Under the pieces are notes generated by a model, which worked only from the letters and a program-made list of their open reading frames with translations, did no database searches and was not told the DNA's origin. Source: Candidatus Parcubacteria bacterium (lineage in GTDB: Bacteria; Patescibacteriota; Minisyncoccia; Phycocordibacterales; UBA918). Taken from it: a DNA stretch of 59,935 nucleotides. The position numbers were made by a program, and so were the translations under genes. Location: NCBI GenBank assembly GCA_021731405.1, contig JAKFXN010000006.1, forward strand, positions 1-59,935, read 5' to 3'. Below, piece after piece: positions 2,089-33,051 of this stretch (position 1 is the stretch's first letter; every line of letters begins with the position of its first letter).

Positions 2089-3417
2089 TTACACTTCACC
2101 CAATTCAATTTGCTTTTGTTTGAGACAGATTCCACCTTTAAAGCAGGAAATGATTTCTCTCTTTTCCTCAATCGAACCTTCTTTCAGTAAAAACTTTATA
2201 TATCTTTTAACATCAATATCACCTACCTCAAAGTTAAGGTCTTGTCCTAGTAGCGACGCTTCGAACTTCTTGTATCTAGTCACTTCAGCCACAATCTGCT
2301 TTTTCACAGACAGTTCGTTCACCTCTACCTTATCCACCAGAGCTTGAAGTTGTTTGATAAGTTCTGTTTCAGAAATATAACCGCACTTGCAGTTCTTATC
2401 CCTCGCCTTGGTACATCCATAGTAGACATGAGCATTAACTTTGCCATTTTTAAGCTTCTTATACTTCTCATCAGCACTAATACCAGAACCACATAAGCCA
2501 CAGGCCATCAATCTAGTAAACGCAAATTCTTTCTCTTGTCTGGTCTTCAGTTCATTTCCTTTAAGTTGAGATTGAACCATTTCAAACAACTCTTTCGAGA
2601 TAAGTGGTTCATGTTTGCCTTTGTACCAGTTACCAGAGTTTTTCGGATACTCAAACTCACCATGATAGAAATTATTTTCAAGAAGTTTATAAATATTACC
2701 CAGACTTAAGTGCTTCTTTCCACAAGCAGTTCGGAAATTTAAATCATGTCTCAGCCAGTGATACACCTTCCTACCACTCCACCTCTCGTATGCTACCTTC
2801 TCAAATACCTTCTTTATGGTTTCTCCTCGTTCTGGGTCTATATAACACTCACACTTTCTATCGTTACGGATTTCTTTGAGATACCCTGTTGGAGCTGGTG
2901 CAGGCCACAGGCCCATCTCAACTCTCGTTTTAAGTCCTCGCTTTACATTGATACTTTTATTGTCGTTCTCAAGTTTAGCTTGTGAACAAAGAATCATCAG
3001 AAGGAACTTTTCATTTGGAGAGTTTTTGAAGTGTTGTCCATGAGTGCGTATTTCCATCAAAAGTTTCTGGTCCATTAAATCGACGATACTCCCTAAGTCA
3101 CCAGCATTACGGGAAAGTCTATCGGGTGCCCAGGTGAGAATGCCATTAAATTTTCCTCGTCGTACGTCCTCAAGTATTTCTTTGTACACTGGTCGCTGTC
3201 CAGACTCTTTGGCGGAATGTGACTCTCGCCGTATTTCAGCCACATCTAATCCATCACGTTCAGCTAACTCTAGCATCTCCTTTACTTGGGAATCAATTGA
3301 AAGAACTTGGCGCTCTTCAGACTCGGTTGATTTGCGAGCATAGAGTACATACCTAATCTTTTCAGGCATGACTATTTGCTCGGTTTTTATGCGGGCTGAT
3401 GTATATGTTTCCATCAT
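2089..3417 (-). CDS. Large serine recombinase (resolvase + recombinase + Zn ribbon)
   Basis: YVLYARKSTE catalytic motif, DRLSRN, CGLCGSG...YYGC...C Zn ribbon. Start probably 3417 or 3369. Confidence 0.93.
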   Translation of the reverse strand: MMETYTSARIKTEQIVMPEKIRYVLYARKSTESEERQVLSIDSQVKEMLELAERDGLDVAEIRRESHSAKESGQRPVYKEILEDVRRGKFNGILTWAPDRLSRNAGDLGSIVDLMDQKLLMEIRTHGQHFKNSPNEKFLLMILCSQAKLENDNKSINVKRGLKTRVEMGLWPAPAPTGYLKEIRNDRKCECYIDPERGETIKKVFEKVAYERWSGRKVYHWLRHDLNFRTACGKKHLSLGNIYKLLENNFYHGEFEYPKNSGNWYKGKHEPLISKELFEMVQSQLKGNELKTRQEKEFAFTRLMACGLCGSGISADEKYKKLKNGKVNAHVYYGCTKARDKNCKCGYISETELIKQLQALVDKVEVNELSVKKQIVAEVTRYKKFEASLLGQDLNFEVGDIDVKRYIKFLLKEGSIEEKREIISCFKGGICLKQKQIELGEV

Positions 3418-3557: not shown

Positions 3558-3752
3558 TACAAATCAGACCTAACCCGACAGCTTTTGCTGGCGGTATGGT
3601 CGCAAATACCGTCCAAAGTAAACAACTCCTAATCAGAGCTACTTTGGACGGTCATATCGGGAAACTGGTATGGGTATTGCCTCACGGGGCGTATCGGCCT
3701 GGTTAGGAGCTTTTTGCTACCTGACCGACCACTCTAAATCCGTCCAAAAAAT
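3558..3752 (+). ncRNA. Candidate structured leader/ncRNA with H-type pseudoknot
   Basis: 13-bp stem 3608-20/3640-52; its loop 3626-36 pairs with 3699-3709; GAAA-capped and G-U-rich hairpins lie in between. Confidence 0.55.
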
Positions 3753-4475
3753 ATGAATACACAAAACCCCTCCCCCGAGGAGGTCGCTTTACTTATAAGT
3801 AAGCGTCTTAAAAAGTTCTGGGGTTACGGTAACCTCAAAGGCTCAGTTTGGCTTATCGGTATGGAAGAAGGTATCGGAGCTGACGAAGACTTTCCCATTA
3901 CTCGCTTTGAATCAACAAGTGGTAAGGAAGTAGTAGACATCACCTACAATACTGCCGAAGACCATAATCGTTGGTTTAAAACTGGAGCCGCAACTCAACG
4001 CACGTGGCGACCATTAATTTTTATACTGCTTTATCAAAAGCTCGGTCGTGTCCCGACACTCGAAGAGATTCGTGACTACCAAATCAATCACTTTGGTCGA
4101 AGAAATTCAGACCACGCCATTTTAGAATTAATGCCCTTACCCGCACGTTCACTCAAAGCTTCCGATTGGATATACAGTGACGTACAACTTAAAGGACTTA
4201 AGAATCGCAAGGAATATCTGGCGACATATAAACCAGAGCGAGTAAAACTTCTGCAAGCACTTATAGAAAAACACCAACCGAAGTTGGTGCTATTCTATTC
4301 ACGAAGCTATCTCCCTGACTGGCAATCAATTGTTCCTAAAACACTTAAGGAAGTGATTCCTGAGAAACTGCATATCGCTAAGGTTGGTAATACTAACTAC
4401 GCTGTGACCGCTCATCCTGTCAGTCATGGACTATCGACCAAAGACTGGGAAATGATTGCTCGCAAAGTACTTTAG
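3753..4475 (+). CDS. Hypothetical protein, probable uracil-DNA-glycosylase-superfamily fold
   Basis: FWGYGNLKGSVWLIGMEEG (motif-A-like), LELMPLPA, C-terminal HPVSHG (motif-B-like); 240 aa. Confidence 0.5.
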   Translation: MNTQNPSPEEVALLISKRLKKFWGYGNLKGSVWLIGMEEGIGADEDFPITRFESTSGKEVVDITYNTAEDHNRWFKTGAATQRTWRPLIFILLYQKLGRVPTLEEIRDYQINHFGRRNSDHAILELMPLPARSLKASDWIYSDVQLKGLKNRKEYLATYKPERVKLLQALIEKHQPKLVLFYSRSYLPDWQSIVPKTLKEVIPEKLHIAKVGNTNYAVTAHPVSHGLSTKDWEMIARKVL

Positions 4476-10831: not shown

Positions 10832-10857
10832 CGGTTCTTGCCCGAGACCGCCCGCCA
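10832..10857 (+). other. tRNA-3'-end-like remnant (candidate attR)
   Basis: CGG-TTCTTGC-CCGAG-ACCGCCC-G-CCA resembles a T-arm, acceptor 3' strand, discriminator and CCA; no D or anticodon arm upstream. Confidence 0.35.
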
Positions 10858-10893
10858 AAATAAAAACACCCACATTTGTGGGTGTTTTTATTT
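10858..10893. terminator. Bidirectional intrinsic terminator
   Basis: AAATAAAAACACCCACA-TT-TGTGGGTGTTTTTATTT inverted repeat. Confidence 0.8.
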
Positions 10894-10901
10894 GTGTTTG
10901 A

Positions 10902-11627
10902 TTACTGATTAAGCACTGTCGAGATAAGCTGCTTAACCGAGGCAAGTGACTGCGCACCATTTATTGGATACGTCTTCCCGTCTGGCCCTATCAAGATACT
11001 CCACGGCGTTCCTGTTCCCCCAGTCTCACTTGCATTGGCGATATCTGATGAAATTTGTTGTTGGTACTTGTTGGTTACTTGGCAACTTTTGAAAACAGCC
11101 GTATCAAGTTTTAGTTCAGTAGCAATCTGTGGAATTACCACCTCAAGGTCAGTTCGATTATTTGTGAGAGTCAATTCAAAGTAGCGGTCAGCGAATTTCC
11201 AAAATGTCTCGTCCCCTCCTTGCTCAGCCGCACACTCAGAAGCCAGCGCAGCTGCATACGCCTTTACGGGATGCAGTTGTTCAAGCGGATATTGTCTGAA
11301 CACCCAAGCCACTTCCCCTTCGCTGTACTCATCCATCAGCTCTCGCATCGTGTTATGGAAGCGTTGGCAGAACGGACATTCAAAATCTGAGTACGTCACA
11401 ATAGTAATCGGTGCATCAATTGGCCCTCGCACATAATCTTCTTCAGTCACACTGCGAACTAGATTTGTTTTATCCGCCGGCGGCGTCACTACAGGCTTTA
11501 CTTCTACCGCCGGATTTTTTGCCAAACTCAGATAAATAGAGGTGGCCACAAGGAGACTCCCAAGCACAATCGAAATTGGTATGGCGTAAGGATTTGGCTG
11601 CTTATACGTACTTTGTTGTTCTTCCAT
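10902..11627 (-). CDS. DsbA/BdbD-like oxidoreductase (copy 2)
   Basis: YSDFECPFC, GTPWSIL, INGAQ; clear paralog of 729-1502. Confidence 0.9.
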   Translation of the reverse strand: MEEQQSTYKQPNPYAIPISIVLGSLLVATSIYLSLAKNPAVEVKPVVTPPADKTNLVRSVTEEDYVRGPIDAPITIVTYSDFECPFCQRFHNTMRELMDEYSEGEVAWVFRQYPLEQLHPVKAYAAALASECAAEQGGDETFWKFADRYFELTLTNNRTDLEVVIPQIATELKLDTAVFKSCQVTNKYQQQISSDIANASETGGTGTPWSILIGPDGKTYPINGAQSLASVKQLISTVLNQ

Positions 11628-18316: not shown

Positions 18317-18389
18317 GCGCCTATAGCTCAGCCGGTAGAGCAGCTCCCTTTTAAGGAGAAGGTCCCAGGTTCGATCCCTGGTGGGCGCA
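18317..18389 (+). tRNA. tRNA-Lys (anticodon TTT), CCA not encoded
   Basis: Cloverleaf: GCGCCTA/TGGGCGC acceptor, GCTC/GAGC D-stem, CT-TTT-AA loop, CCAGG-TTCGATC-CCTGG T-arm. Confidence 0.97.
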
Positions 18390-18441
18390 CAAATAAAAAC
18401 ACACCCATCAAGGGTGTGTTTTTATTTGTGCGCCCACCAGG
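18377..18441. repeat. 30-bp perfect inverted repeat that includes the tRNA 3' end (also a bidirectional terminator)
   Basis: 18377-18406 pairs with 18412-18441, 5-nt loop. Confidence 0.95.
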
Positions 18442-18637
18442 TGCAGCTTTTCGTTTAGAAAAGCGTGGCACGGATCGAAAAGCTTTTGAGGCAGAATTGA
18501 CTGGAAGGAAATTATGTCCAAAAGGTGTACTGCGCCTGTATGCAAAGCATCCTTGAACTGCATTCGCACCATAAACCTGAGCGAGCTCTGGTTTAGGTAC
18601 TCATTTGTTCAAGTAAGGCGAGATACCCCTGGTGGCT
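18428..18637 (-). ncRNA. Candidate ~210-nt structured RNA convergent on tRNA-Lys, ending in a copy of the tRNA 3' end
   Basis: Closing stem CCACCAGG/CCTGGTGG, multibranch junction, and a long hairpin with G-U and tandem G-A pairs that form on the minus strand. Confidence 0.5.
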
Positions 18638-18768
18638 AAAATACATAGCGAACTATTATAGTTAGTAACTCGTGACCACGTGCGCCCACATATGTACCTT
18701 ATCTTGCAAAACTATTAAATCTATTGCATAATCCAAACATCACGTTCTTTATATTATAGGAGCTCCTC

Positions 18769-19167
18769 ATGAAAGCTCGCCCTTTCACGCCTCCCCCAAA
18801 CGGACTCATTGCCTTTAACAATAACGGTTACCTCTGCTACGGAGTCTTTCTCGGTATTACGCCTGAGAATAGGATTAAGGTCTATACCCCTGATCAAGCT
18901 GTGCGCTTTGTGCAAATTAATATCAGTGACCAGAACGATTATGAATGCCATTTCCTTCCGTATGACTACCAAGAGCTTCGTCAAAAAGCCCGAAGCTGGT
19001 GGAAGGGTTTTGTTATTGAAGTAGCTGGTAAGCGCTATGTTGTAACCACAGCCCACCGGTCGCCTCCAAAATACAAAACGGTACTTGTTCACTATCGTGA
19101 CGAAAAAAATCTCAAGCGCAGCGTCCTACTTAAAGACCCGAAGCTCAAATTTGTTGGGCATGTCTGA
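18769..19167 (+). CDS. Hypothetical protein
   Basis: 132 aa, AGGAG SD upstream, terminator-like hairpin just downstream (about 19185-19215). Confidence 0.6.
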   Translation: MKARPFTPPPNGLIAFNNNGYLCYGVFLGITPENRIKVYTPDQAVRFVQINISDQNDYECHFLPYDYQELRQKARSWWKGFVIEVAGKRYVVTTAHRSPPKYKTVLVHYRDEKNLKRSVLLKDPKLKFVGHV

Positions 19168-25017: not shown

Positions 25018-25255
25018 TGACTATGCTATAGTCGAAAAGTAATTAGTTCCTTTATAGGAGAGTTCCAGAATATAACTCTCTAAGCAAGCTTCCGCATTGA
25101 AAGTGAACACCGCGCTAAGGAAGTTTGCAGCACTTTCACTCAAGGTGAACGCCACAAACCCCTCGCAACGTGCTCAGGTTGCTTAGAGAGTTATGCTCTG
25201 GAAATGGTCAGAAAATGATCAGGGTGCCAAATGAGGCACAAGAGAACGCTATACA
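25018..25255 (-). ncRNA. Candidate ~240-270-nt non-coding RNA of unknown class
   Basis: Lies between a consensus promoter and a terminator with no ORF; 16+7-bp long stem 25063-87/25179-203 enclosing two hairpins. Confidence 0.6.
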
Positions 25256-32727: not shown

Positions 32728-33036
32728 ATAAAAACTATTTTACTCTCTACTATTAGGGTTGTGGAAGTGTGCATATCTTTAAAATAGTGTTGTATTACGT
32801 ATTGTATAAGGTTTTTTAATCAACACTTACTACTTCATTTCCTGTTAATAGTGATTTTTTAGTTGGGGATGACTACGGTAGTTTGTTTTGGTTGTGTATA
32901 ACATAACCACATTACCCCCACTTTTATGACTTCTTTTTAGTAAAAACTTTAAACTGTAAGAAGGTTATCTACATAGCTTATCATAAGATATGTACAGAGA
33001 TGCTCCTTAAATAAAAAACTCCTTCGAAGGAGTTTT
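32728..33036. other. Probable oriC (dnaA-dnaN spacer)
   Basis: AT-rich; DnaA-box match TTATACACA (32893-901, minus), TTATCTACA (32965-73) and several 2-mismatch boxes. Confidence 0.7.
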
Positions 33037-33051
33037 TTATTTAAGGAGCAT
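33000..33051. terminator. 52-bp perfect palindrome overlapping the dnaA stop (terminator)
   Basis: ATGCTCCTTAAATAAAAAACTCCTTC|GAAGGAGTTTTTTATTTAAGGAGCAT, no spacer. Confidence 0.85.

Follow-up and report, generated by a model that had tools for sequence, protein, structure and literature searches.

Structured modules carrying copies of the tRNA 3' end behind tRNA genes of Paceibacteria, with a decayed array at a tRNA-Lys locus

The locus studied here lies in the window (i.e., the whole stretch of 59,935 nt analysed, contig JAKFXN010000006.1 of a Candidatus Parcubacteria bacterium) and raises the question of why a tRNA-Lys(UUU) gene is followed by pieces of its own 3' end, arranged around further sequence that can fold. 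A sequence-only reading had preferred a convergent, minus-strand noncoding RNA antisense to tRNA-Lys and had named, as a second possibility, a small non-autonomous element that targets tRNA ends. Our comparison of the locus with related genomes shows that positions 18391-18689 of the window are a degenerate array of tRNA-linked structured modules. The parts distinguished in this region and next to it, with the basis for each in brackets, are as follows.

18317..18390, plus strand: tRNA-Lys(UUU) gene (ARAGORN; Rfam tRNA model, 68 bits)
18391..18427, plus strand: terminator 1, hairpin AAATAAAAACACACCC, loop ATCAA, GGGTGTGTTTTTATTT (sequence; middle of the 30-nt inverted repeat)
18428..18441, plus strand: I(acc), inverted copy of tRNA positions 61-74 (30-nt inverted repeat)
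18442..18471, plus strand: Pi, hairpin within the inverted copy, GCAGCTTTTC GTTTA GAAAAGC GTGGCAC (sequence)
18472..18479, plus strand: I(T), inverted T-loop copy, GGATCGAA (inverted repeat; helix 1 of the family alignment)
18481..18526, plus strand: core helices P1 (18481-88 / 18519-26) and P2 (~18491-99 / 18509-17) (alignment row 1, pair counts)
18527..18537, plus strand: conserved junction GTACTG (18527-18532) and P3 5' strand CGCCT (18533-18537) (alignment)
18538..18612, plus strand: optional structured domain of 75 nt in the GTA loop of P3, with GTA on each side (strain variant)
18613..18620, plus strand: P3 loop GTA and P3 3' strand AGGCG (repeats listing, alignment, pair counts)
18621..18635, plus strand: D, decayed direct copy of the 3' part of the tRNA (CCCTGGTGG at 18627-35, identical to 18376-84)
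18640..18679, plus strand: 3' fragment of a second, "B-type" module, ..TTAGTAACTCGTGAC-CAC (matches B-type 3' ends)
18680..18689, plus strand: stray I(acc) remnant GTGCGCCCAC (direct and inverted repeats)
18769..19167, plus strand: orphan ORF of 132 aa (without Pfam family)

The segment copied in I and D represents the last 21 nt of tRNA-Lys (18370-18390, i.e., T-loop to discriminator plus C74). Its reverse complement, which begins 38 nt past the tRNA gene, is found in two pieces, at 18428-18441 (GTGCGCCCACCAGG) and 18473-18479 (GATCGAA); direct reading of the sequence confirmed the earlier observation that a 31-nt self-complementary insert (approx. 18442-18471) splits this inverted copy. Together with terminator 1, I(acc) forms a 30-bp perfect palindrome facing the real tRNA end (18377-18406 / 18412-18441, loop of 5 nt), which had also been seen from the sequence alone and which is the longest among the nine inverted-repeat pairs listed for the 60-kb window at a minimum of 20 nt; its left arm consists of the final 14 nt of tRNA-Lys(UUU) and 16 nt of terminator stem. 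In other species, the homologous I segments follow the respective tRNA ends (GCGCAC vs. GCGGAC). Terminator 1 looks bidirectional by its A-tract and T-tract; its hairpin has a near-identical counterpart at 10853-10896 in the window, and a simple terminator scan did not include terminator 1 (18391..18427) in its list. The window also contains another perfect palindrome, of 52 bp (33000-33051), that is unrelated to any tRNA.

The pairing of 18628-35 (CCTGGTGG, in D) with 18434-41 (CCACCAGG, in I(acc)), described previously as closing the fold, is present, and the CGCCT/AGGCG helix inside it (18533-37/18616-20) represents the covarying family helix P3. What the sequence-only reading missed, besides the precedent of the E. 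coli TLRs discussed below, is that the tRNA end is also copied in direct orientation at 18627-18635; this direct copy is the key to the architecture of the module.

Comparable modules were found in more than 140 genome stretches of Paceibacteria (Parcubacteria, candidate phyla radiation [CPR]), using gapped patterns for the collection searches, as a single 15-mer was too unspecific. The modules are found behind tRNA genes of about 19 isotypes, usually start 16-100 nt behind the tRNA gene and are always located on the strand of the tRNA; the groups that carry them (Kaiser-, Taylor-, Zambryski-, Vogel-, Nomura- and Adlerbacteria) all belong to one class. An nhmmer search yielded 123 hits, approx. 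100 of which had a same-strand tRNA upstream (most 16-100 nt away; approx. 17 isotypes). The window core belongs to the "AAGCTTTTG..CAAAAGG" subtype, which is carried by 60 further genome stretches; 63 further hits of this subtype showed equal tRNA linkage, with D often perfect over 21-22 nt, and the subtype alone is present on at least 6 contigs of one genome.

The order of parts in a module is tRNA, terminator 1 (often), I, the core helices P1, P2 and P3, D and, often, a second terminator; terminator-like hairpins precede the module in 41 of 71 cases and follow it in 26 of 71. I is an inverted copy of the tRNA segment from the T-loop to position 74 and is usually split by Pi; in the core, P1 encloses P2 and is followed by the junction AUACUG and by P3 with its GUA loop; and D is a direct copy (up to 22 nt) of the segment from the T-loop to the end of the cognate tRNA. 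Pairing of I with D thus closes the module by a helix in which the T-stem, acceptor strand and discriminator of the tRNA itself make up the 3' strand. A match of 12 nt or more between D and the cognate tRNA was found for 40 of 71 modules, whereas none of the 71 gave such a match to a tRNA of another isotype. Scanning tRNA genes for downstream antisense copies, a check that had been proposed for this locus, showed that 64 of 201 Paceibacteria tRNAs are followed within 120 nt by an inverted copy (at least 8 nt) of their own end, as compared to 4 of 201 for the end of another tRNA; these comparative data exclude chance.

In 14 of 119 cases, the module separates two tRNA genes that have the same orientation and a distance of 18-180 nt; this implies co-transcription. 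Units are mostly approx. 130-200 nt long and may occur in tandem (three units in L241; two each in L033, L205, L262 and L334; one unit plus fragments in the window). Mixed or tandem arrays were found in L033, L241, L205, L005 and L016, some of which combine different core types, with at least two A subtypes and one B type distinguished overall. Copies within a genome have diverged, with compensatory changes, while copies behind the same tRNA in different species keep the module. Many species have perfect arms of 20-30 bp, part of which is terminator sequence specific to the species; "solo" inverted copies without a core occur in L028, L044 and L017; and contigs frequently end at modules. Rfam searches returned only tRNA and spurious hairpin (microRNA) matches, both at the gathering score (window and ten loci) and at a permissive E-value (window copy, B-type array and canonical copy). 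The module family thus apparently has not been described so far, as the sequence-only reading had suspected.

To assess the fold, 97-98 homologues were aligned. The helices covary: 88.9% of cells were paired as compared to 71.4% after shuffling, none of 500 shuffles reached the observed values, double changes were present in 28 of 32 pairs, and slide controls collapsed. P3 was paired in 97%, with all four Watson-Crick pair types represented; the junction (columns 61-65 of the alignment's first sequence) was invariant or nearly so; and I(T) covaried with D(T) as helix 1. Compensatory changes between I and D that are independent of the tRNA (20 positions, as compared to 28 positions at which all three differ) do not add to this evidence. 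Covarying counterparts of Pi occur at the same place in L010, L022, L036, L202, L239, L156 and others. Covariation, which had been suggested as a test, is therefore strong in the core and, together with the tRNA linkage, bears out the earlier claim of a conserved structured element tied to the tRNA 3' end.

Wobble pairs were used to determine which strand folds. At the P1 pair 18-69, G-U was found in 58-59 sequences, G-C in 33, U-A in 6 and A-C in none; the totals were 92 for G-U vs. 23 for A-C. RNAalifold likewise gave -25.9 kcal/mol for the plus strand vs. -14.2 for the minus strand. The wobble pairs of the family thus fit the tRNA-sense strand only, contrary to the previous assignment of such pairs to the minus strand. 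Folding of single sequences leaves the strands unseparated, as the minus strand of the window also folds well (-67.6 kcal/mol, z = -3.3). Within the 75-nt domain, one position of the window shows a minus-strand U-G vs. a plus-strand C-A mismatch, and one position in L007 is alike. Most of the hairpins are capped by GNA triloops (GUA in P3; GCGAAGC or GCGUAGC in P2). As GNA triloops are especially stable in single-stranded DNA, this would favour a structure at the DNA level.

Measured against the family, the window copy is a composite: the core represents approx. 100 nt (approx. 140 nt with both tRNA-end copies) and D is shortened to 9 nt. What had been proposed as one RNA of approx. 210 nt resolves into a core, tRNA-end copies, a separable optional domain and remnants of further modules. 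Contigs of runs X5 and X9 represent a strain variant without the 75-nt domain, in which 18537 is connected to 18613, and X5 also holds the domain in a different context. This 75-nt block (18538-18612) contains both the ATGC/GCAT hairpin and the long hairpin; the same insert occupies this loop in L051, L007, L206 and L253, and L156 shows a corresponding insertion start. The B-type 3' end in the window (18640..18679) matches those of L005, L012-14, L016, L051 and others and coincides with a branch point of doubled depth in the assembly graph of the source metagenome. The 10-mer GTGCGCCCAC, whose recurrence at 18680-89 had been noticed before, is found at 18428 and 18680; the second occurrence looks as if a further, lost module had started there, and equivalent I(acc) remnants are located behind B-type modules in L037, L012, L007 and L059.

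The 132-aa ORF had no relative among species-representative genomes, and an exact-protein lookup found it in two short contigs only; the stretch of approx. 800 nt that holds it is missing in related genomes, and in the compact loci L028 and L044 the terminator of tRNA-Lys abuts a conserved gene adjacent to polA. A coding reading of the 54-aa ORF on the minus strand (18408-18572) was rejected, as there was no Pfam match and the frame was not kept (i.e., among the homologues, compensatory changes are found together with loop indels of lengths not divisible by three).

The closest precedent in logic is found in the tRNA-linked repeats (TLRs) of E. coli, which include the rtT/RttR RNA of the tyrT operon (Rfam RtT, RF00391) and RrA/RrB/RrF behind 5S rRNA. 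To our knowledge, no function or origin of these tRNA-linked repeats has been accepted since 1978. At each TLR locus, 1-5 units directly follow a tRNA or rRNA gene on its own strand, and the last 18-19 bp of a unit repeat the 3' end of that gene exactly (PMC8144298). In the E. coli tyrV TLR, every unit additionally contains 10 nt of the tRNA end in inverted orientation (GGGGAAGGAT). The CPR modules thus share with TLRs the same-strand placement behind the tRNA, the tandem units, the terminal tRNA-end copy (up to 22 nt in the CPR family, 9 nt in the window) and the I-core-D logic, and architecturally they appear to belong with them. On the other hand, the two occur in different phyla and show no homology in sequence or structure: RtT (RF00391) did not match the window copy or the canonical copy at E-values up to 10, nor any of ten loci at the gathering score. 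Moreover, the cores of the CPR modules are different and show much stronger conservation and covariation, their longer I (up to 20 nt) is interrupted by a hairpin, and modules are found behind nearly all isotypes. D runs from the T-loop to position 74 in the CPR family, as CCA is not encoded in the gene.

We favour, tentatively and at somewhat less than even confidence, the reading that the module is a TLR-like RNA that would be co-transcribed with the tRNA and processed at D. By analogy, transcription would start at the tRNA promoter and continue into the module, either by reading through terminator 1 or, where this terminator is missing or a further tRNA gene follows, directly. The 5' end of the module would arise from the cut at the tRNA 3' end, and its 3' end would be cut by the same 3'-end machinery, which may recognize the copy of the tRNA end formed by I:D. 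In a less likely variant of this reading, the released RNA would be an acceptor-arm mimic that gains CCA and competes with, or reports on, the cognate tRNA. The palindrome arms are probably kept perfect by template-switch correction, new copies and arrays would arise where the tRNA end is repeated, through duplication or insertion, and the window copy would since have decayed (D of 9 nt, the optional 75-nt domain, fragments of further modules behind). Covariation, plus-strand wobbles, placement in co-oriented tRNA operons and the lack of recombinase enrichment near modules support this reading. Against it, I abuts terminator 1 and leaves no space for a separate promoter; in a read-through transcript, the tRNA could be misfolded by pairing of its real end with I (over 30 bp in the window); and features resembling DNA insertion (cargo units, long direct repeats, mixed-core arrays) are present. 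None of the RNA runs searched for the window stretch contains it. The runs found with a locus from the Rifle aquifer yielded tRNA words and a few module-like contigs without strand information, and module-like contigs in a wastewater metatranscriptome represent weak evidence.

A second explanation, somewhat unlikely in our judgment, is that the modules are non-autonomous mobile cassettes whose recombination site is the folded tRNA-sense single strand. Such sites have parallels in integron attC and in CTX-phage attP(+), i.e., imperfect inverted repeats that fold on one strand and in which structure is conserved over sequence; integron cassettes are stacked in one orientation beside a fixed site. 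The modules show I:D pairing and strand-specific wobbles, a pattern that RNA and single-stranded DNA would both give. In contrast to attC or attP(+), their arms are copies of the adjacent tRNA gene, the core sequence is conserved and an ORF is missing from most units; a partner of the IntI or Xer type was not found for the modules. A further parallel is provided by the tycheposons of Prochlorococcus, elements that gather at tRNA 3' ends, are flanked by direct partial tRNA copies and form islands with tandem insertions and decayed remnants (10.1101/2020.12.28.424599). As in such integrase-driven tRNA islands (tycheposons, tRNA att sites), a direct copy of the tRNA 3' part is located at the far end of the module; however, those islands extend over kilobases and encode a tyrosine recombinase specific for the tRNA, whereas most modules are short, no recombinase is found in them, and they combine a structured core that is conserved with an att segment copied in inverted orientation.

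Under the cassette explanation, I:D would restore a duplex copy of this part of the tRNA gene (T-arm and acceptor end) with an irregularity, Pi, in its centre, and a recombinase encoded elsewhere would swap one strand with the tRNA gene near the boundary of T-loop and T-stem. The product would read tRNA with D-right, terminator or cargo, I, core, and D-left with the original tRNA end; D would have to equal the tRNA end for the tRNA to stay functional, and folding of the site would require that I matches D. The parts are found in the predicted order, and tandem and mixed arrays are present. A few units carry cargo: in L221, a 2.9-kb block (HTH, RhuM-family and unknown genes) separates the tRNA from I-core-D, and L239 has a 2.5-kb unit with a flanking 37-nt repeat that reaches 18 nt beyond the tRNA end. 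Direct repeats extend 7-18 nt beyond the tRNA end in L042, L114 and L239, accessory genes are located nearby (DUF559 endonuclease, Gp49/HigB-like toxin), and the window has the orphan ORF and approx. 800 nt over the compact loci. The GNA triloops and strand-specific G-T pair are compatible with folded single-stranded DNA, and contig breaks at modules also fit a cassette. However, integrase, transposase and HUH genes are not enriched near modules: the list of the 25 most frequent Pfam families of 140 ORFs located within 3 kb contained no recombinase family, and clustering of 363 downstream ORFs revealed housekeeping genes only and no recombinase. The sole IS200-like Y1 gene, in L239 (one in 2.36 Mb), has its own, unrelated inverted repeats around it; searches of viral contigs, phages and plasmids found no module copies; near-identical dispersed copies are lacking, as those within a genome are old, diverged and compensatory; copies behind the same tRNA persist across species; most modules are cargo-free among housekeeping genes; and no empty-vs.-occupied pair with exact junctions was found. 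The earlier suggestion of a small non-autonomous element targeting tRNA ends hence comes close to one of the two explanations that remain live. The more specific form of this explanation, in which I and D of self-targeting, recombinase-less cassettes are re-templated for each tRNA and the single strand, folded as a copy of that tRNA gene's end, is recombined by a host enzyme, appears more doubtful still.

A protein family is encoded just upstream of some tRNA genes; two members tested had no Pfam match, a LAGLIDADG-like stretch was recognized by eye, and the HTH_23/HTH_7 matches probably belong to this family.

Compared to these two explanations, the convergent minus-strand RNA of approx. 210 nt, with a tRNA-Lys-mimic 3' end and acting antisense or being processed by tRNA enzymes, is highly improbable. 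The stable minus-strand fold of the window, the minus-strand U-G at single positions of the 75-nt domain (window and L007) and the bidirectional appearance of terminator 1 would be consistent with it, but the wobble pairs across the family and RNAalifold clearly indicate the plus strand, the modules are always oriented as the tRNA and are sometimes located within tRNA operons, the compact loci have the 3' end of a protein gene on the minus strand, and the long hairpin behind the idea is an optional insert.

We consider it just as improbable that the locus is a mutational by-product, i.e., a terminator palindrome extended into the tRNA end by template switching, with nothing functional or mobile beyond it. 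The perfect arms with species-specific terminator sequence, the solo inverted copies and the occurrence of a 52-bp palindrome away from any tRNA fit this view, which leaves unexplained the covarying core, D, Pi, the existence of several core families and the spread over approx. 19 isotypes and more than 140 genome stretches. Covariation and D thus contradict the reduction of the feature to a template-switch palindrome that the sequence-only reading had named as its refutation, and template switching probably accounts only for the perfection of the arms. A dispersed repeat of the MITE or REP type was rejected, as the modules are confined to positions behind tRNAs, have diverged within a genome and lack a short target-site duplication, and as the only Y1 transposase gene found is flanked by repeats of another kind. 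Readings as hammerhead, k-turn or box C/D, bridge RNA, omega-RNA and primer-binding site were rejected on inspection of the sequence, as defining motifs or the partner protein are missing.

Small, streamlined CPR genomes thus retain many modules of 130-200 nt whose helices are preserved by compensatory change, and this preservation across candidate groups indicates either a function or a very successful selfish strategy. The modules add to the structured RNA candidates a family that is absent from Rfam, and they cause assembly breaks at tRNA loci in metagenomes. As a second, independent and much larger family with I-core-D logic, they make the old question of the TLRs testable, including which factor recognizes the repeated end, by what means the arms stay matched to the respective tRNA, and at which level, RNA or DNA, the module acts. 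If the modules were self-targeting cassettes, a "programmable" att site would be present at essentially every tRNA gene of a CPR genome.

The window carries a single tRNA gene, and what lies behind it is a decayed array of a tRNA-linked module, comprising a first terminator, an inverted copy of the tRNA 3' end (I) split by a hairpin (Pi), an A-type core whose P3 carries the optional domain, a direct copy of the tRNA end (D) that is down to 9 nt, a fragment of a B-type core and a remnant of I. The parts are, in order:

18317-18390, plus strand: tRNA-Lys(UUU) (ARAGORN, Rfam)
directly 3' of tRNA-Lys: hairpin AAATAAAAACACACCC / ATCAA / GGGTGTGTTTTTATTT, the first downstream part
18428-18441: GTGCGCCCACCAGG, reverse complement of the final 14 nt of the tRNA-Lys gene
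between GTGCGCCCACCAGG and GGATCGAA: self-complementary insert of 31 nt
18472-79: GGATCGAA, T-loop reverse complement
18627-35: CCCTGGTGG, identical to 18376-84, direct copy of the tRNA-Lys end
18640-18679: 3' fragment of a core of the second (B) type
18680-89: GTGCGCCCAC, stray remnant of I

Because GTGCGCCCACCAGG matches the 3'-terminal 14 nt of the tRNA gene in reverse complement, the tRNA end plus the terminator stem gives an inverted repeat that is perfect over 30 bp (18377-18406 / 18412-18441). This repeat and the split copy of the T-loop and tRNA end with its 31-nt insert, both described in the sequence-only reading, were confirmed, and the other pairings it listed are likewise present, as is the second occurrence of GTGCGCCCAC at 18680; the direct copy had been missed. 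Another terminator hairpin in the window (10853-10896; ..AAATAAAAACACCCAC / GTGGGTGTTTTTATTT..) is 83-90% identical to the tRNA-Lys one, indicating that terminator sequence is reused in this genome.

Clear homologues of 18428-18635 were found behind tRNA-Lys in related genome loci (L010, L022, L036, L042, L043, L033, L013 and L005), and a profile built from tRNA-Lys homologues was used for searching along with two gapped exact patterns (one genome per species). These patterns picked out 83 and 60 stretches, which with few exceptions belong to Patescibacteria/Paceibacteria MAGs (Kaiser-, Taylor-, Zambryski-, Vogel-, Nomura-, Adlerbacteria and others); differing labels on some of these records are probably mistaken. 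Approximately 100 of the 123 profile matches had an upstream same-strand tRNA gene, mostly 16-100 nt away, representing Lys, Arg, Met, Ile, Gln, Trp, Val, Ser, Tyr, Leu, Ala, Gly, Pro, Glu, His, Cys and Asp isotypes; the window's own subtype showed the same linkage and added Thr. The 3' end of the module is D, the 3' part of the cognate tRNA from about T54 to position 74, often perfect over 19-22 nt, and a D of at least 12 nt was observed in 40 of 71 modules with the cognate tRNA as compared to 0 of 71 with the end of another isotype. The 5' end is I, an inverted copy of the same tRNA segment that is usually split by Pi. Across all tRNAs in the loci, inverted copies of at least 8 nt occurred at 64/201 tRNAs versus 4/201 controls. 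B-type cores obey the same I/D rule. The family appears to be undescribed, in line with the sequence-only reading, which knew of no such family: Rfam 15 does not contain it, and most of the literature searches gave no description of it.

Small accessory genes beside module arrays at L010:3956-4264 (+), L036:9503-9808 (-) and L221:503-2896 (-) encode an endonuclease-like protein (DUF559), a toxin resembling Gp49/HigB, and a RhuM-family protein together with an HTH regulator; accessory genes also gather in the region behind these tRNAs. Proteins of a 180-255 aa family are encoded directly 5' of tRNA genes, mostly tRNA-Gly genes, and in the same orientation; these tRNA genes themselves have modules behind them:

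L273:2029-2796 (-)
L218:1766-2449 (-)
L220:4465-5154 (+)
L234:4094-4777 (+)
L202:916-1527 (+)
L115:1906-2538 (+)
L156:5523-6131 (+)
L184:673-1377 (-)

Their N-terminal region is helix-turn-helix-like, with a LAGLIDADG-like motif recognized by eye (..LYWAEGDK / LYLGEGSK..). Two members tested had no Pfam match, HTH_23/HTH_7 matches near modules probably belong to this family, and it might represent a free-standing homing endonuclease linked to tRNA genes.

Helices P1, P2 and P3 of the core covary strongly among 97-98 aligned cores: 88.9% of cells were paired versus 71.4% after shuffling, both sides changed at 28 of 32 pairs, none of 500 shuffles reached any observed measure, and pairing was halved when partners were slid by one column. 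All four Watson-Crick pairs occur at every one of five P3 positions, and the helix between the T-loop parts of I and D covaries as well (one pair is A-U in 34 sequences, C-G in 25, U-A in 23 and G-C in 7). The sequence-only reading had proposed a convergent minus-strand RNA antisense to tRNA-Lys. Single-sequence folding of the window did not discriminate between strands. Wobble pairs decide the strand: one P1 position is G-U in 58, G-C in 33, U-A in 6 and A-C in 0 sequences, overall counts are 92 G-U versus 23 A-C, and RNAalifold gave -25.9 kcal/mol on the tRNA strand versus -14.2 on the opposite strand. These comparisons place the structure on the tRNA-sense strand, as RNA or single-stranded DNA, and contradict the minus-strand model, which is not supported.

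The long hairpin of the sequence-only reading is a separable domain. In two low-depth runs, contigs of a near-identical strain lead straight from 18537 to 18613; the 75 nt left out are bordered by GTA at either end, and one of these runs holds a copy of the 75-nt piece in a different context. P3 is usually capped by a GUA loop, where this insert is located. Inserts of this kind, which have internal motifs that are conserved and an apical stem that covaries, occur in modules behind tRNA-Lys (L051, L007), tRNA-Trp (L206) and tRNA-Tyr (L253), and the L156 module, whose nearest upstream tRNA (Tyr) is approximately 1.2 kb away, has a matching insertion start; with five sequences the strand of the insert is ambiguous.

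The window comes from a drinking-water metagenome, and its organism is, judged by sequence, a Kaiserbacteria-like member of Paceibacteria; polA showed up to 82% amino-acid identity to MAGs of this group. Of the 60 related loci scanned for tRNAs, 37 have tRNA-Lys near polA, on its downstream side. In L028 and L044, the most compact relatives, the tRNA-Lys terminator adjoins the conserved gene beside polA and its stem still reaches 11-13 nt into the tRNA end; compared to these, the window holds approximately 800 additional nt, including an orphan 132-aa ORF. At the 30-mer 18648-18677, contigs ended and started and depth doubled in 3 of 4 source-metagenome runs; this 30-mer, conserved as the 3' terminus of B-type modules, is also present in other contigs, so the modules break short-read assemblies.

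E. coli tRNA-linked repeats (TLRs) number 22 units, spread over ten loci with 1-5 units each; they follow tRNA or rRNA genes, and the last 18-19 bp of every unit repeat the 3' end of the gene before it exactly; a function is known for few (PMC8144298). At tyrV of MG1655 (NC_000913.3, 1286000-1287500), each 178-bp unit carries, besides the 19 nt already known to repeat the tRNA-Tyr 3' end directly (AATCCTTCCCCCACCACCA), a 10-nt inverted copy (GGGGAAGGAT) that PMC8144298 does not mention. The tyrV units thus share the I-core-D logic, whereas there is no shared sequence and the Rfam RtT model did not match the modules of the candidate phyla radiation (CPR), indicating analogy rather than homology. 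We tentatively read the CPR module, with slightly less than even confidence, as a TLR-like RNA whose transcription and processing we infer. Fourteen modules sit between two co-oriented tRNA genes, the first terminator is absent in some (L042, L043, L114, L118), and the space between terminator 1 and I is too small for a promoter, all of which argue for co-transcription with the tRNA. Release of the module from the tRNA transcript would follow from the I:D helix, in which the 3'-end machinery would meet the 3' strand and discriminator of the tRNA itself.

The sequence-only reading had alternatively proposed a small non-autonomous element targeting tRNA ends; an element tied to tRNA ends is partly supported, and the main rival, to which we give less confidence than to the TLR-like RNA, is an insertion cassette acting at the DNA level, whose att site would be a folded single strand. 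The order of parts is the product expected of single-strand exchange near the T-loop/T-stem boundary, core types are mixed within arrays, module loops are GNA triloops typical for stable DNA hairpins, and a few units carry cargo: in L221, a 2.9-kb block of HTH, RhuM-family and unknown genes separates the tRNA from I-core-D, and in L239 a 2.5-kb unit is bounded by a 37-nt repeat extending 18 nt beyond the tRNA end. However, no recombinase was found near modules, no copies in viral contigs, phages or plasmids, and no dispersed near-identical copies, and diverged copies are kept long-term with compensatory changes. An IS200-like Y1 transposase gene (L239:3022-3696 (+)) has its own inverted repeats (AAAGGGGTCAGGAGCATTT / AAATGCTCCTGACCCCTTT, with AAATGCTCCTGACCCCTTT twice) in flanks 2988-3006 and 3686-3760, a REP/RAYT-like layout, and is unrelated to the adjacent modules. 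A TLR-like RNA and a DNA cassette are not mutually exclusive.

Template switching of the terminator palindrome as the sole explanation leaves the core and D unexplained. Template-switch correction of palindrome arms is nonetheless a plausible means of keeping I perfect, and 'solo' I extensions (L028, L044, L017) fit it, as does a 52-bp perfect loopless palindrome at 33000-33051 (ATGCTCCTTAAATAAAAAACTCCTTC | GAAGGAGTTTTTTATTTAAGGAGCAT); this palindrome has a terminator-like core lengthened by 13 bp at either end and no relation to a tRNA, and it suggests that palindromes are being extended or perfected in the window's genome. Elsewhere in the window, 3567-3695 (+) is a full-length Rfam match to LOOT RNA (RF03000; 75 bits versus a gathering score of 46.4), a 28-nt inverted repeat (25063-25090 / 25176-25203; 89% complementary, arms 85 nt apart) could be a further structured element, and 954-1251 and 11124-11418, approximately 70% identical and separated by 10.2 kb, are probably paralogous genes.

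Whatever its role, the module must have reached nearly all tRNA loci, with its arms kept matched to each tRNA.
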